Shown here piece by piece: positions 54,799 through 61,430 of a DNA stretch of 64,000 nt. The DNA lies in contig CAMVNQ010000003.1 of the NCBI GenBank assembly GCA_947168885.1, positions 189,140 through 253,139 of the forward strand. Reading direction: 5' to 3'. The notes below the pieces were generated by a model that saw only the letters and a program-made list of their open reading frames with translations, did not search any database and was not told where the DNA came from. How positions within the stretch are numbered: the stretch's first letter is position 1; each line of letters starts with the position of its first letter. Source of the stretch: an uncultured Clostridia bacterium. Lineage in GTDB: Bacteria > Bacillota > Clostridia > Oscillospirales > Ruminococcaceae. The position numbers and the translations under genes were made by a program.

Positions 54799-56715
54799 AT
54801 GCCTTTTCTGCCTGTATCGCGCGAGGATATGAAAGCGCGCGGAATTGAACAGTTCGATTTCATCTGCATAACGGGTGACGCGTATGTCGATCACCCGTCT
54901 TTCGGTATTGTTATAATAGCACGGCTGCTCGAAAGCTTTGGCTGTACCGTCGGAATGATACCACAGCCCGTCTCGGACGCTGATTTTAAAAAGCTCGGAA
55001 AGCCGAAGTACTGCTTTATGGTCTCGGGCGGGAACATCGACAGCATGGTCTCGAACTACACCGTCGCCCTCAAAAAGCGCAACGACGATGCGTACAGCGC
55101 AGGCGGCATCGGCGGCAAGCGCCCCGACCGCGCCGTCAACGTGTATTGCAGGACTCTCAAAAGGCTGTTCCCCGATACCGAGATAGCGATAGGCGGTCTC
55201 GAAGCGTCACTGCGCAGATTCGCGCACTATGATTACTGGGACGACTGCGTTATGCCGTCAATACTTGTGTCAAGCGGCGCAGAACTGCTTATGTACGGCA
55301 TGGGCGAGCTTACCGTGACCGAGATATGGAACCGCTTCAAGGCGGGTGACAAGCTTGCCGATATGCACGACATACGCGGAACGTGTTACCTCACCGAACC
55401 GGTGAATACGCCTATCGGCGCGGTTCAGTGCGACAGTTTCGAGCTCGTCCGCGACAACAAGAAAGCTTACGCAAAAGCCTGCCGCAAGCAGTACGACGAG
55501 CAGGACGAAATATACGGCCGCACGATAGTCCAGCGCCACGGGAACGAGATGCTGGTTCAGAACCCGCCCCAGCGCAGCCTGACACAGTCAGAGTTCGACC
55601 GTGCCTATGAGCTCCCGTATATGCGCGCCTATCACCCGATGTACGAAAAAGACGGCGGCGTGCCGTCTATAAAGGAAGTCGAATTCTCGATAACTCACAA
55701 CCGCGGCTGCTTCGGATTCTGTAACTTCTGCTCTATCGCGCTGCATCAAGGCAGACGCGTGCAGACAAGAAGCGCAGAGTCAGTACTGAATGAGGCGCGA
55801 GAGCTTGCCGCTTCCCCGCGGTTCAAGGGCTATATACATGATGTCGGCGGGCCCACAGCCGACTTCCGTCACCCATCCTGCGAAAAGCAGCTTAAAAGCG
55901 GTCTGTGTAAGGGAAAGAAGTGCCTTGCACCTTCGCCCTGCCCGAATATGAAGGTGGATCACACGGAGTACCTGTCGATACTGCGGGAAATGCGCAATAT
56001 TAAGGGTGTGAAGAAAGTATTCATCCGCTCGGGTATCCGTTACGACTATCTGATCGAGGACAAGAGCGACGAGTTCATGAAAGAGCTCATCGCAAACCAC
56101 ATCAGCGGTCAGCTTAAAGTCGCGCCGGAGCACGCTTCCAACAAGGTGCTCGATTATATGGGAAAGCCGCATATCGAGGTCTATGAGCGCTTCGAGAAGA
56201 AGTTCTACGACATAACGAAAGGAATGGGTAAGGAGCAGTATCTCGTCCCGTACCTTATGTCTTCTCACCCGGGCTGTACCCTGAACGATGCTGTGGATCT
56301 CGCCGTGTTCCTCAAAAAGCATAACATACGCCCCGAACAGGTACAGGACTTCTACCCTACCCCGGGAACAATCTCAACGGCTATGTTCTATACGGGACTC
56401 GACCCGTACACTCTCGAACCGGTGTTTGTCCCGCGGAAATATGAAGAAAAGAAGCTTCAGAGGGCACTGCTGCAATATTTCAAGAAAGAGAACCGCGATC
56501 TTGTCGAAAAAGCTCTTACGATAACGGGACGCAGAGATCTTATCGGAAACGGTGCAAACTGCCTTATACCGGCATCTCCGGACAGCAGAAAGGTAGGCGG
56601 TAATGTCAGAGATAAAAGGAACGACCGCGGAAGGACCGCTTCCGGAGCAGGAAAAGCTTCTTCCGGACGCGGACAGCGAAGAACCGGAAAAGCCCCGAAA
56701 AACAAGCGCGGTTAA
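54799..56715 (+). CDS. ygiQ: YgiQ family radical SAM protein
   Basis: GDAYVDHPSFG, RGCFGFCNFC, DVGGPTA, EQVQDFYPTP. Confidence 0.93.
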   Translation: MPFLPVSREDMKARGIEQFDFICITGDAYVDHPSFGIVIIARLLESFGCTVGMIPQPVSDADFKKLGKPKYCFMVSGGNIDSMVSNYTVALKKRNDDAYSAGGIGGKRPDRAVNVYCRTLKRLFPDTEIAIGGLEASLRRFAHYDYWDDCVMPSILVSSGAELLMYGMGELTVTEIWNRFKAGDKLADMHDIRGTCYLTEPVNTPIGAVQCDSFELVRDNKKAYAKACRKQYDEQDEIYGRTIVQRHGNEMLVQNPPQRSLTQSEFDRAYELPYMRAYHPMYEKDGGVPSIKEVEFSITHNRGCFGFCNFCSIALHQGRRVQTRSAESVLNEARELAASPRFKGYIHDVGGPTADFRHPSCEKQLKSGLCKGKKCLAPSPCPNMKVDHTEYLSILREMRNIKGVKKVFIRSGIRYDYLIEDKSDEFMKELIANHISGQLKVAPEHASNKVLDYMGKPHIEVYERFEKKFYDITKGMGKEQYLVPYLMSSHPGCTLNDAVDLAVFLKKHNIRPEQVQDFYPTPGTISTAMFYTGLDPYTLEPVFVPRKYEEKKLQRALLQYFKKENRDLVEKALTITGRRDLIGNGANCLIPASPDSRKVGGNVRDKRNDRGRTASGAGKASSGRGQRRTGKAPKNKRG

Positions 56716-57768: not shown

Positions 57769-58518
57769 TTAAGTGTAATCAACAACGTTTACCCACGAAG
57801 CGAGGAATTCGCGTTCTTGTTCGTTGCCCTTTACGGACTGGGAAGCCGCAACTATCGGCATCCACTTCTGAACATACTGGAGAGCGGTGTCGGTCTTGTC
57901 GCAGAAAGATTTAAGATACTGTTTGCCGATCTCCTCGTTTCCGGAAAGACAGAACGTGAGATACGTTCTCGCCGCGTCGGCAGAGGCATTGCCCTGTGTT
58001 GCGTGTGCCCAGTCGATGATGTACGGCGTGCCGTCCTTCGTGATGATAACGTTCGAGGGGTTGAAGTCGCCATGACAGAGCTTTAAATGCTTTGGCATGG
58101 ATTCAAGCGTAGTATGCAGGTCATAGCGTACGGTCGCGGGGAACTGTGAAGCGGAGATCTTCGCGTGCATCTTGTCCTTCAGGCGGCCGAGAAGCTGGCA
58201 CTTGTGCGACTGGACATCTATCTGAAGGTTCACGAAAAGCTCCATATACTCGTCGAGCTTCGACGGGTTCTCCTGCCACATCTGCATAAGCGTTTTGCCT
58301 TCTATGAAATCGGAGACTATAGTCCACTTGCCGTCTATCGTTATTACTTCGCGTACCTTCGGGATATTGAGTCCGGTAAGTTCGACGCGCGCCTGATTGA
58401 GGGCTTCGTTGAGTATGCCGTGTTTCGGGCAGCTCTCGTCGAACACCTTGAGGCAAAGGTCGCCGTCACGGTATATCGTCTTGTCTCTGCGTTTTGCTAT
58501 TACATTATCAAGCTTCAT
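57769..58518 (-). CDS. Aminoglycoside phosphotransferase / kinase-like protein
   Basis: CHGDFNPSNV and IIDW motifs; downstream of adhE. Confidence 0.85.
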   Translation of the reverse strand: MKLDNVIAKRRDKTIYRDGDLCLKVFDESCPKHGILNEALNQARVELTGLNIPKVREVITIDGKWTIVSDFIEGKTLMQMWQENPSKLDEYMELFVNLQIDVQSHKCQLLGRLKDKMHAKISASQFPATVRYDLHTTLESMPKHLKLCHGDFNPSNVIITKDGTPYIIDWAHATQGNASADAARTYLTFCLSGNEEIGKQYLKSFCDKTDTALQYVQKWMPIVAASQSVKGNEQEREFLASWVNVVDYT

Positions 58519-58532
58519 ATTCTATGCCCTCC

Positions 58533-61430
58533 TTACTGCTTTTTCGCTCTGCCGCGCTTTGCGGGAGTTTTCTCCGTTTTTGCGGAAGTCTCGGTCTTAG
58601 GCTTTCTTCCGCGCTTTGCGGGAACAGGAGCGGGTGCCGCTTTTTCGGCAGCGGGCTTTCTTCCGCGCTTTTTCGGAGCCGTATCGTTCACCGCAGCTTC
58701 GCTTACCGCCGCAGCAGCTTTCGCATATCTTCCGCCGCGCTTTACCGGAGCTTCGGCAGCAGCTTTCTTAGCCGCTGCGGACTTCTTGAGCTGACTGTCG
58801 TCAGGCATATCGGGTTCCTTGAATGAGCCGCCGTAGTACGCGTTCATATACATCTGCTTAAGCTCGCTCATGAGCGGGTATCTCGGGTTGGCACCGGTGC
58901 ACTGGTCGTCGAACGCCGCTTCGGTCATCTCGTCAAGAGTCGCGAGGAAATCCTTCTCCGAAACGCCGTAATCGGCGATTGTCTTCTTGATACCGACGCG
59001 CTCTTTAAGCTTCTCTATCGCGGAAATGAGGTTTTCAAGCTTCTCGCCGTCGGTCTTCCCGCCAAGTCCGAGATAATCCGCGATCTCCGCATATCTCGCG
59101 AGAGCGTGCGGGTGGTCATACTGAGAGAATGTACCCATTTTGACAGGCTTCTCCGATGCGTTGTATCTCATTACGTTGCAGATAACGAGAGCATTCGCGA
59201 TACCGTGAGCGATGTGATGATAAGCACCGAGCTTGTGCGCGAGGGAGTGGGAGATTCCGAGGAATGCGTTGGCAAACGCCATACCTGCCATTGTCGCCGC
59301 GTTCGCCATTTTTTCGCGGGCTTCGACATCGTTCGCACCGTTGTCATACGCGCGCGGCAGATACTCGAATATCGTCTTCAATGCTTTAAGCGCAAGTCCG
59401 TCGGTATAGTCGGTCGCCATTACCGACGCGTAAGCTTCAAGAGCGTGTGTGACTGCGTCAATTCCGGATGCCGCCGTAAGCCCCTTGGGCGCGGTCATGT
59501 GCATATCCGTATCTATTATAGCCATATCCGGAAGCAGCTCGTAATCCGCGAGCGGGTATTTGCAGCCGTCTTCCCTGTCGGTGATTACTGCGAACGGAGT
59601 GACTTCCGAGCCTGTTCCCGCGGAGGTGGGCACGGCAACGAAATAAGCCTTCTCACCCATTTTCGGGAACGTGTAAACGCGCTTTCTTATGTCGATGAAA
59701 CGCATTGCCATGTCTTTGAAATCCGCGTCGGGATGCTCGTAAAGCACCCACATTATCTTTGCCGCGTCCATAGCCGAACCGCCGCCTACCGCGATTATCA
59801 CGTCAGGCTTGAACGACATCATCTGCGCCGCGCCGGCCTTTGCGCTGTCAAGTGTCGGGTCGGGTTCGACATCAAAGAATGTCGCGTGGACTATACCCAT
59901 TTCGTCGAGTTTGTCGGTTATCGGCTTCGTAAAGCCCGCACCGTAAAGGAAGCTGTCCGTTACGATGAACGCGCGCTTCTTGCCCATTACCCTGCCAAGC
60001 TCGTCAAGCGCGACGGGCAGGCAGCCTTTCTTTATATACACCTTTTCGGGTGCTCTGAACCAAAGCATATTCTCTCTCCTTATCGCAACGGTCTTGATGT
60101 TAAGCAGATGCTTTACTCCGACATTCTCGCTGACGCTGTTGCCGCCCCACGAGCCGCAGCCGAGTGTGAGCGACGGTGCGAGTCTGAAGTTGTACAGATC
60201 TCCGATACCGCCGTGCGACGAAGGGGTGTTTACAAGGATACGTCCGGTCTTCATGCGCGACTTGAACTCGTCGAGTATCTCCGTTTCGGTGTGTTCGTTG
60301 AGGTAGATCGAGGACGTATGTCCGTAGCCGCCGTCAGCTATCAGACGCTCTGCCTTGTCGAACGCGTCATGTATATCGTTTGCCTTATACATTGCGAGAA
60401 CAGGAGAGAGCTTTTCATGAGCAAACTCTTCGCTTATATCGACGTTCGTTACTTCGCCGATGAGTATCTTTGTTCCCTCGGGAACGGAAACACCGGAAAG
60501 CTCTGCTATCTTCGCGGCTTTCTGACCGACGATCTTCGCATTCAGCGCGCCGTTGATAATAATAGTATGACGCACCTTGTCGATCTCGTCGCCTTTCAGG
60601 AAATAACAGCCGCGGCGTGCAAACTCTTCTTTCACTTCGTCGTAGATGTCGTCAAGGACGATAACGGACTGCTCGGACGCGCAGATCATACCGTTGTCGA
60701 AAGTCTTTGAGTGTATTATCGAATTGACCGCGAGCACAATATCCGCGGACTTGTCGATTATAGCGGGGGTATTGCCGGCTCCGACACCGAGAGCGGGCTT
60801 TCCGCTCGAATACGCAGCCTTGACCATTCCGGGACCGCCTGTCGCGAGTATAATGTCGGCTTCCTTCATTACAAGCGTCGTCATATCGAGACTCGGCGCG
60901 TCTATCCACGAGATGATGTTCTCCGGAGCACCCGCCTTTATCGCTGCGTCACGGACGATGCGCGCAGCTTCGATAGTGGACTTCTTAGCGCGGGGGTGGG
61001 GGCTGAAGATGATGCCGTTGCGGGTCTTTAAAGCTATGAGAGCTTTGAATATTGCTGTGGACGTCGGGTTGGTAGTAGGTATAACGGCAGCGATAACACC
61101 GATAGGCTCGGCTATTTTCTGTATGCCGTAAGCCTTGTCCTCCTCTATAACGCCGCAGGTCTTGGTGTCCTTATAGGCGTTGTAGATGTACTCGGCGGCA
61201 TAGTTGTTCTTGATAACCTTGTCCTCGACAACGCCCATGCCGGTTTCCTCCACCGCCATTTTAGCAAGCGGAAGGCGCATTTTGTTTGCCGCGGAAGCAG
61301 CGGCAAGGAAGATCTTATCGACCTGCTCCTGCGTAAACGTTGAGTACTTCTTCTGCGCCTCTTTTATCAGCCTGAGTTCGGCTTCAAGGGCGGGAACGCT
61401 GTCAACAACGGCTCTTTCCTTCTTTTCCAT
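58533..61430 (-). CDS. adhE: Bifunctional acetaldehyde-CoA/alcohol dehydrogenase with basic C-terminal extension
   Basis: PTTNPTST, DNGMICASEQ, TLGCGSWGGNS, GGGSAMDAAK, HSLAHKLG; promoter TTGTAA-17-TAGAAT at 61518-61546. Confidence 0.96.
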   Translation of the reverse strand: MEKKERAVVDSVPALEAELRLIKEAQKKYSTFTQEQVDKIFLAAASAANKMRLPLAKMAVEETGMGVVEDKVIKNNYAAEYIYNAYKDTKTCGVIEEDKAYGIQKIAEPIGVIAAVIPTTNPTSTAIFKALIALKTRNGIIFSPHPRAKKSTIEAARIVRDAAIKAGAPENIISWIDAPSLDMTTLVMKEADIILATGGPGMVKAAYSSGKPALGVGAGNTPAIIDKSADIVLAVNSIIHSKTFDNGMICASEQSVIVLDDIYDEVKEEFARRGCYFLKGDEIDKVRHTIIINGALNAKIVGQKAAKIAELSGVSVPEGTKILIGEVTNVDISEEFAHEKLSPVLAMYKANDIHDAFDKAERLIADGGYGHTSSIYLNEHTETEILDEFKSRMKTGRILVNTPSSHGGIGDLYNFRLAPSLTLGCGSWGGNSVSENVGVKHLLNIKTVAIRRENMLWFRAPEKVYIKKGCLPVALDELGRVMGKKRAFIVTDSFLYGAGFTKPITDKLDEMGIVHATFFDVEPDPTLDSAKAGAAQMMSFKPDVIIAVGGGSAMDAAKIMWVLYEHPDADFKDMAMRFIDIRKRVYTFPKMGEKAYFVAVPTSAGTGSEVTPFAVITDREDGCKYPLADYELLPDMAIIDTDMHMTAPKGLTAASGIDAVTHALEAYASVMATDYTDGLALKALKTIFEYLPRAYDNGANDVEAREKMANAATMAGMAFANAFLGISHSLAHKLGAYHHIAHGIANALVICNVMRYNASEKPVKMGTFSQYDHPHALARYAEIADYLGLGGKTDGEKLENLISAIEKLKERVGIKKTIADYGVSEKDFLATLDEMTEAAFDDQCTGANPRYPLMSELKQMYMNAYYGGSFKEPDMPDDSQLKKSAAAKKAAAEAPVKRGGRYAKAAAAVSEAAVNDTAPKKRGRKPAAEKAAPAPVPAKRGRKPKTETSAKTEKTPAKRGRAKKQ

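Follow-up and report, generated by a model that had tools for sequence, protein, structure and literature searches.

AdhE of a rumen Clostridia bacterium carries a clade-conserved, AT-hook-like basic tail, a candidate nucleic-acid tether on spirosomes

In fermenting anaerobes, the bifunctional acetaldehyde-CoA/alcohol dehydrogenase AdhE ranks among the most plentiful enzymes, and the filaments that it forms are an active field of study. The best described counterparts of the protein considered here are the AdhEs of Escherichia coli (PDB 6AHC, 6TQH and 7BVP) and Clostridium thermocellum (8UHW), which are the same bifunctional enzyme and both form the filaments called spirosomes. In E. coli AdhE, the aromatic side chain of F670 enters a hydrophobic pocket at the contact between two alcohol dehydrogenase (ADH) domains, and mutation of this residue abolishes filaments (PMC6778083). 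At the C-terminus, the E. coli enzyme has a linker and a short Lys/Ala-rich tail that extends about 23 residues past the shared YYG and is free of RGR where it is aligned; in the C. thermocellum enzyme, a tail is all but absent. In the literature on these two proteins, we found no function for either C-terminus. Here we describe the adhE gene of an uncultured rumen Clostridia bacterium, which lies in a stretch of 64,000 nucleotides of contig CAMVNQ010000003.1 (positions 189,140 to 253,139; assembly GCA_947168885.1), hereafter the window. Its product, a fermentation enzyme, continues beyond the ADH domain into a long basic tail. What is new is the combination of AdhE with an AT-hook-like, multivalent basic tail that, judged from sequence comparison, is conserved across a clade, under selection and probably convergent. 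A literature search found no link between AdhE and AT-hooks or between AdhE and a DNA-binding tail, and the main text of the nucleoid proteome paper PMC3082553 does not mention AdhE.

The gene and its two enzyme domains occupy the following positions of the window.

58533..61430, minus strand: adhE coding sequence, 965 aa plus a TAA stop codon at 58533-58535 (open reading frame (ORF) list and translation)
60219..61364, minus strand: acetylating aldehyde dehydrogenase (ALDH) domain, residues 23-404 (Pfam Aldedh, E=3.5e-25)
58836..60050, minus strand: iron alcohol dehydrogenase domain, residues 461-865 (Pfam Fe-ADH 461-641, ADH_Fe_C 652-865)

The minus-strand 965-aa protein is a bifunctional AdhE. 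It scored 1399.6 bits against the NCBIfam equivalog profile PRK13805 (cut-off 951), with residues 4-871 covering profile positions 5-870 of 872, and the catalytic Cys250 of the ALDH domain, which sits in an ICASEQS motif, is invariant among 13 homologues. The initial annotation had described a 965-aa frame that runs past the ADH domain into the tail, and the ORF, the end of the PRK13805 match at residue 871 and the letters of the tail all agree with this description. The span that it assigned to the tail, 58533-58810, extends from about residue 874 to the stop codon. Its statement that AdhE is usually shorter than 900 aa likewise agrees with the solved AdhE structures, whose chains are 861-894 aa long.

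Alignment with the C. thermocellum spirosome protein (8uhw) gave 1563 bits over 864 residues without gaps, and that with E. coli AdhE gave 1211 bits. When the window protein was aligned to 6ahc and 8uhw, Y675 fell at the position of E. coli F670 (F672 of chain 6ahc_A), the residue of the ADH-ADH filament contact. A Tyr also occupies this position in the spirosome-forming AdhE of C. thermocellum, and Y675 is kept in every tailed homologue. The enzyme part should thus be a normal spirosome-forming AdhE. Because this core is very close to that of the C. thermocellum spirosome protein, display of the tail on filaments is a reasonable expectation.

We counted as tail everything after ..NAYYG867, which comprises 98 residues (GSFKEPDMPDDSQLKKSAAAKKAAAEAPVKRGGRYAKAAAAVSEAAVNDTAPKKRGRKPAAEKAAPAPVPAKRGRKPKTETSAKTEKTPAKRGRAKKQ); the Ala/Lys/Pro-rich extension measures 94-98 aa, depending on where the boundary is set. 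The 98 residues include A24, K19, P10, R8, G6 and E6, and their net charge is +17, compared with -16 for the AdhE core. Three RGR triplets are present. When the tail was shuffled 1,000,000 times, at least one RGR was obtained in 34,712 shuffles, at least two in 275 and at least three in 0. The tail is made up of the following parts.

58791..58829, minus strand: acidic linker, G868-SFKEPDMPDDSQ880, consensus GxFKExDMPDxxQ (tail alignment)
58743..58790, minus strand: Lys/Ala-rich segment, L881-V896 (LKKSAAAKKAAAEAPV), where the tail changes fastest
58725..58742, minus strand: hook 1, decayed, K897-RGGRY902 (tail alignment; the copy at 58731-58753 of the 23-nt repeat family D1)
58653..58676, minus strand: hook 2, P919-KKRGRKP926 (R922, G923 and R924 invariant in 13 of 13 tailed proteins)
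58596..58622, minus strand: hook 3, P937-AKRGRKPK945, which arose by lineage-specific duplication of hook 2
58536..58565, minus strand: terminal hook 4, P956-AKRGRAKKQ965 (G960, R961 and K964 invariant)

In the linker, P876 is invariant and F870 and E872 are nearly so; a related HFxExxMP segment is present in relatives with short and medium tails. The window AdhE and its relative P0002 are 99.7% identical in the core and show 10 differences in the tail, mostly at residues 869-896. At the position of hook 1, relatives have KRGRKP or KRGRK, and the decay to KRGGRY is common to this genome and its two nearest relatives. Hook 3 is confined to P0001-P0003 and P0007 in the tail alignment. Among the 12 main-clade proteins sampled as protein clusters, 10 have hook 4 at a distance of 6 residues from the C-terminus.

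The segments that encode the four hooks are divergent versions of a single 23-nt unit (identity 70-83%, spacings of 57, 54 and 72 nt), which indicates that the tail grew by duplication of a unit of hook plus spacer, about 18-24 codons long, and then diverged. A direct repeat of 48 nt (58600-58647 and 58654-58701, 71% identical) contains hooks 2 and 3. Tandem Repeats Finder detected no repeat in the tail DNA, and the diverged repeat was found only by a separate repeat search. Two antisense ORFs over the tail (58165-58794 and 58494-58826, both on the plus strand) were set aside as a side effect of the Ala/Lys/Arg-rich composition of the sense frame.

When the search was confined to the tail region, it retrieved 12 other protein clusters from independent assemblies, some with 23-30 members. 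All were full-length AdhEs of 926-989 aa and all carried K/R-RGR hooks. Further tailed loci (L002, L021, L022 and L023) were present in species-representative genomes. The aligned tails follow a constant order: the acidic linker, a Lys/Ala stretch that varies, hook 1 (APAKRGRK), about 15 spacer residues with acidic ones among them, hook 2 (APKKRGRKPK), an optional duplicated hook and the terminal hook (APKKRGRAKKQ, then the stop codon). Most members of the clade end in ..KRGRAKKQ. Among 13 proteins, the invariant columns of the tail are P876, A905, P919, R922, G923, R924, K958, G960, R961 and K964. Identity to the relatives was 43-65% in the tail and 81-94% in the core, and while the spacers diverge, the hook residues are fixed.

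Codon analysis against four relatives gave dN/dS values of about 0.14-0.25 for the tail and about 0.03-0.06 for the core, at a dS of about 1.1-1.4; the tail values count alignable columns only, and synonymous sites are saturated. At such a dS, a neutral tail would have lost both its frame and its similarity. The comparison therefore indicates that the translated frame of the tail is maintained by purifying selection.

To place the tailed proteins, we built a maximum-likelihood tree of 104 AdhE cores from which the tails had been removed. One clade (support 0.99) contained 16 RGR-tailed proteins with no loss of the tail inside it. The first sister of this clade is L090 (support 0.935), whose Lys/Ala/Thr tail of 42 residues contains no RGR; the following sister, L080 (support 0.954), has a 24-residue tail ending in KKKSSSKKA. 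This series of sisters looks like the stepwise elaboration of a short basic tail. The initial annotation had raised the possibility that the tail and its RGR motifs are confined to one strain. The tail was instead found in 16 of 16 AdhEs of the clade, with invariant hook residues and the signature of purifying selection.

These data contradict a reading of the tail as non-functional read-through or as an artefact of assembly, which we consider the least probable of the explanations weighed here. Low-complexity tails can arise by loss of a stop codon and replication slippage, the tail DNA is a diverged repeat, and most relatives are without a tail. However, the same frame and terminal hook recur in the 12 further protein clusters (up to 30 members each) and in L002 and L021-L023, dN/dS is well below 1 despite saturated synonymous divergence, and no clade member has lost the tail. 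Further, the gap between adhE and the downstream kinase gene is only tens of bases in the untailed relatives, and there is therefore no separate gene that could have been mistakenly fused in.

In the rest of the tree, 54 proteins end within 6 residues of AYYG, most of them at AYYGK. A short HFxExxMP extension is present in 13, a 29-34-residue tail ending in YRKGKKA in 14, and another basic tail in 6. The YRKGKKA tails form a second class, which starts with HFVExxMP after AYYG and is scattered among related lineages with a short tail or none (L006, L025, L027, L029, L033, L045, L047, L049, L050, L058, L061, L066, L070 and L071). This class and the Lys/Ala tail of E. coli show that the AdhE C-terminus repeatedly gains basic extensions. 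Short basic C-terminal tails are common on AdhE, including that of E. coli, and most close relatives have no such hooked tail; the initial annotation overlooked both points.

Among same-genus species representatives with a readable 3' end of adhE, only G002 has the RGR tail; in G007, adhE ends at a contig edge, and tail residues 850-952 are matched by another contig, a small one. The AdhEs of most same-genus species are 72-78% identical to the window protein, compared with 81% for that of G036, which belongs to another family. The grouping of the species is therefore not mirrored in the adhE tree. By sequence identity the tree disagrees with taxonomy, which suggests that adhE has been transferred horizontally, or replaced by a paralogue, among gut Clostridia.

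The recurrence of basic tails raises the question of whether charge alone would account for the tail. It could act as an electrostatic or entropic modulator of the filament that has no nucleic-acid partner, affecting spirosome bundling, condensation or solubility, tuning the compact and extended forms, or binding a polyanion such as polyphosphate. With a tail of +17 and a core of -16, the monomer is near neutral. Basic tails of unrelated designs (the 14 of YRKGKKA type, the 6 others and that of E. coli) fit a generic charge effect, and other enzymes of this genome, for example the glycogen branching enzyme GlgB, also have long Lys/Ala tails. A pure charge effect, however, needs no invariant R-G-R triplets in an otherwise fast-evolving tail. 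Further, the mean core charge was -13.6 for tailed and -15.0 for untailed proteins; the tailed cores are not more acidic, and there is therefore no sign of charge co-evolution. We regard this explanation as unlikely.

A pure charge effect also does not predict the seventeenth RGR-bearing AdhE of the tree, P0013, which groups with L005 (support 0.95) within a mostly tail-less group and has probably converged on RGRP hooks. Its tail consists of four 22-residue repeats with canonical SRRGRP hooks and one KKRGRKP, and its match to Pfam AT_hook was below threshold (11.9 bits; cut-off 17.4). A search with this tail retrieved no further AdhE; it retrieved non-AdhE proteins with a precomputed PF02178 (AT_hook) annotation. 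P0013 probably gained its hooks independently on the same terminus, judging from a single sequence and from a tree in which the deep nodes between the groups are weak (0.28-0.42).

The core of a canonical AT-hook is R-G-R-P (PMC5028900; PMC4615771), and in the fuller P-R-G-R-P core the flanking prolines steer the backbone out of the minor groove (PMC5028900). The motifs of the window tail are RGGRY (the decayed hook 1), RGRKP, RGRKP and RGRAK, none of which has the RGRP core. Among the AdhE relatives, canonical RGRP occurs only in L021 (KRGRPVKK) and P0013. The initial annotation had called the repeats AT-hook-like, and this reading held in part: the K/R-RGR hooks are real and conserved and hook 2 equals a described AT-hook, but the RGRKP and RGRAK forms are non-canonical and lack a Pfam AT_hook match.

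The described motif is AT-hook 2 of MeCP2 (PKKRGRKP, residues 264-273), whose octapeptide is identical to hook 2 of the window; it too has RGRKP, in which the proline is shifted by one residue, and its surroundings are basic and disordered. MeCP2 is a vertebrate chromatin protein with a single copy of the motif, whereas the window AdhE, an enzyme expected to polymerise, has three to four copies. The tail resembles HMGA1 and HMGA2 (HMG-I/Y) in its several R-G-R hooks, its flexible spacers of 14-25 residues, its probable disorder and its flanking Lys, Arg and Pro, but the HMGA core is P-R-G-R-P, and the window hooks are without a proline directly after RGR. The extended AT-hook, according to the available text of PMC4615771, combines a GRP core with basic residues placed symmetrically 12-15 residues away; the window hooks are without a GRP core, and the neighbouring hooks supply basic patches at 14-25 residues.

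Among bacterial proteins, H-NS and Lsr2 insert a Q/RGR element, like the R-G-R of the window, into the AT-rich minor groove. Their hook is part of a folded domain and acts jointly with a domain for oligomerisation, whereas for the window tail the oligomerising part would be the enzyme filament. A folded DNA-binding domain of the H-NS/Lsr2 type was not found on the tail, which gave no Pfam match and is of low-complexity composition. No Pfam family of any kind was detected on the tail at E<=1 or E<=10, and the HC2 and histone H1-like profiles did not match it. Add-on DNA anchors gained by bacterial proteins, in the form of AT-hooks like those of eukaryotes or of basic tails like that of histone H1, include the HMGA-like domain of Myxococcus xanthus CarD and the Lys/Ala/Pro tails of mycobacterial HupB and chlamydial Hc1/Hc2. 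The carriers of these anchors are dedicated transcription or nucleoid proteins, whereas here the carrier is a central fermentation enzyme.

Tethering to nucleic acid ranks first among the explanations considered, and within it DNA is preferred over RNA or the ribosome. Specifically, the tail may be a multivalent nucleic-acid tether displayed on spirosomes, with double-stranded DNA (dsDNA) as the most plausible ligand; we hold this tentatively, at a little short of an even chance. The tail would be a disordered polycationic extension of a normal bifunctional AdhE, with the hooks borne on the conserved acidic linker. Each RGR would insert into a groove, most plausibly the minor groove of dsDNA, while the flanking Lys and Arg would touch the phosphates. 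Because a single RGRKP-type hook is expected to be weak and poorly AT-selective, affinity would come from avidity, with three to four hooks per subunit (three of them intact) and many per AdhE filament. Such avidity would favour long grooved polyanions, that is, dsDNA or structured RNA, and AdhE filaments would become tethered to, or condensed with, the nucleoid or another nucleic acid. That the tail is disordered, that the enzyme forms spirosomes with an exposed C-terminus, that it binds nucleic acid and that this has a physiological role we infer from the sequence and from its likeness to the systems described above.

Several observations weigh against this proposal. Pfam AT_hook (PF02178) gave no match on the window tail even at E<=10. 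The AT-hook 2 peptide of MeCP2 binds DNA, but about 25-fold more protein is needed than for the HMG-I consensus hook, and its AT preference is barely detectable, since poly(dA-dT) competes only slightly better than poly(dG-dC) (PMC5028900); the authors attributed the weak binding to the displaced proline (PMC5028900). In the available text of PMC4615771, AT-hook-type peptides can prefer RNA. The number of hooks ranges from 1 to 5 among the relatives and hook 1 has decayed in this lineage; hook dosage is therefore not tightly fixed. Most close relatives, including most same-genus species, are without any tail. An AlphaFold2 model based on 13 close homologues had a mean pLDDT of 45 and a pTM of 0.30, too poor for use of the core; the tail, at pLDDT 25-35 and with no predicted secondary structure, is probably intrinsically disordered, and the model adds little to what the composition suggests. 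ADH active sites face the spirosome's inner surface (PMC6778083), and there is no obvious benefit in placing an acetaldehyde-making enzyme on DNA.

The ligand could instead be RNA or the ribosome, the tail anchoring AdhE to rRNA or mRNA and so extending the reported ribosome association of E. coli AdhE. We consider this improbable, yet it draws on several lines of evidence. E. coli AdhE binds the 30S subunit at its head, near the mRNA entrance, and unwinds RNA, and its C-terminal region was fitted beside S3 (PMC4731797); that paper did not address the E. coli tail in ribosome binding (the words 'tail' and 'lysine' occur 0 times). The E. coli protein ends in ..yvegetaakkeaapakaekka.., and a basic AdhE tail thus predates the hooks. 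According to the available text of PMC4615771, binding by extended AT-hooks is about ten times better with RNA than with DNA. Two proteins with the same KKRGRKP module, P0017 and P0018, weakly matched the Pfam 'RNA binding Region' family, but no single stretch of either was above threshold. Nothing in the sequence tells RNA and DNA apart as ligands.

An extracellular role was also weighed, in which released or surface AdhE would be held by its tail to anionic polymers of the cell wall, to extracellular DNA or to plant fibre. The available parts of the published accounts describe AdhE as a cell-surface adhesin in Listeria and report functional spirosomes in the exoproteome of C. thermocellum. 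Further, every tailed sequence with a stated source was recovered from a rumen or gut metagenome (the bins carry the labels Ruminiclostridium sp. or Clostridia bacterium). AdhE has no signal peptide or sorting motif, however, and the argument is one of analogy alone; we judge this role very unlikely.

Beyond tethering as such, the AdhE spirosome of this clade might double as a nucleoid- or RNA-associated filament, with high-avidity, sequence-tolerant binding, scaffolded on the chromosome or compacting it, a state reached twice independently on the same enzyme terminus. On the sequence comparisons made here, we find this wider proposal doubtful.

The hooks themselves are not restricted to AdhE. 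A tail-only search of 1.84 billion representative proteins gave seven matches, among which the PAKRGRKPK module is repeated about 4-13 times, with spacers of about 20 residues or more, in unrelated proteins. The unit of hook plus spacer is therefore a reusable module on several unrelated bacterial proteins. One protein of KRGRKPK-module repeats, P0014, scores on the Pfam H-NS C-terminal domain via its hooks (profile positions 16-26), and P0018 is a DUF6465 protein with about seven KKRGRKPK hooks. A 99-aa protein, P0015, is 93% identical to the end of the AdhE tail over its last 42 residues (..PAKRGRKPKTETSAKTEKTPAKRGRAKKQ), while its first 57 residues are unrelated to AdhE; a contig of chimeric origin, a wrongly called ORF or transfer of the tail module could each account for it.

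In a scan of its own genome, AdhE was the only ORF with at least two such hooks. The hooked tail is therefore a targeted feature, and a genome-wide habit of RGR tails was ruled out. Plain Lys/Ala/Pro tails were found elsewhere in the genome on GlgB, an SCP2-domain protein and two DUF6465 proteins. GlgB (719 aa; G000 C5:75669-77828, minus strand) has a Lys/Ala/Glu-rich tail of about 90 residues (..KKTSAKKPAAKKTAEKAPAAEKK..KKTGAKK), which scored below threshold against Pfam HC2 (histone H1-like; 24.3 bits, cut-off 40). The two DUF6465 proteins (G000 C2:19515-20009 and C23:6832-7488, both on the minus strand) have long Lys/Ala/Pro arms, with KKAGRKPA motifs in the C23 protein, and the DUF6465 proteins of Clostridia may form a family that bears hooks and binds nucleic acid. 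A MobC/NikA-like mobilisation protein (G000 C19:66752-67423, plus strand) starts with the canonical AT-hook KKKRGRPPK (METEKKKRGRPPKHK), the only canonical RGRP hook in the genome scan.

Directly downstream of adhE lies the kinase gene mentioned above.

57769..58518, minus strand: gene for a small APH/Bud32-like kinase, 249 aa (Pfam APH, E=9.5e-12; the top-scoring NCBIfam model, TIGR02172, stayed well short of its cut-off)

It begins 14 nt downstream of adhE, its GGAGG ribosome-binding site abuts the adhE stop codon (TAAGGAGGGCATAGAATATG), and no terminator-like site was found between the two genes on the minus strand. The pair is kept in about 85 of 100 Clostridia loci (L002-L100 and the window), at 43-93% identity, with or without a tail. 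We therefore rejected the kinase as a tail-linked regulator of the hooks, the gene pair being conserved regardless of the tail.

Elsewhere in the window, a YgiQ-type radical SAM protein (Radical_SAM_N, Radical_SAM and DUF3362; 54799-56715, plus strand) also has an Arg/Gly/Lys-rich C-terminal tail (..RDKRNDRGRTASGAGKASSGRGQRRTGKAPKNKRG). The next ORF (a metallo-beta-lactamase-fold protein) is listed as starting at 56603, an overlap of 113 nt with the radical SAM ORF, and this start was therefore probably called too early.

The tail of this AdhE offers a natural test case for enzyme filaments positioned on nucleic acids in bacteria, and the probable separate origin of a canonical-hook version on the same terminus strengthens that case. 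It opens the question of whether the reported association of E. coli AdhE with the ribosome runs via its basic C-terminus. More widely, RGRKP-type hook modules are parts that bacteria can use again and attach to proteins of very different kinds. If binding proves only weak or non-specific, the tail would be another polycationic disordered tail and ordinary as such; if spirosomes do tether to nucleic acid, the finding would be both surprising and useful.

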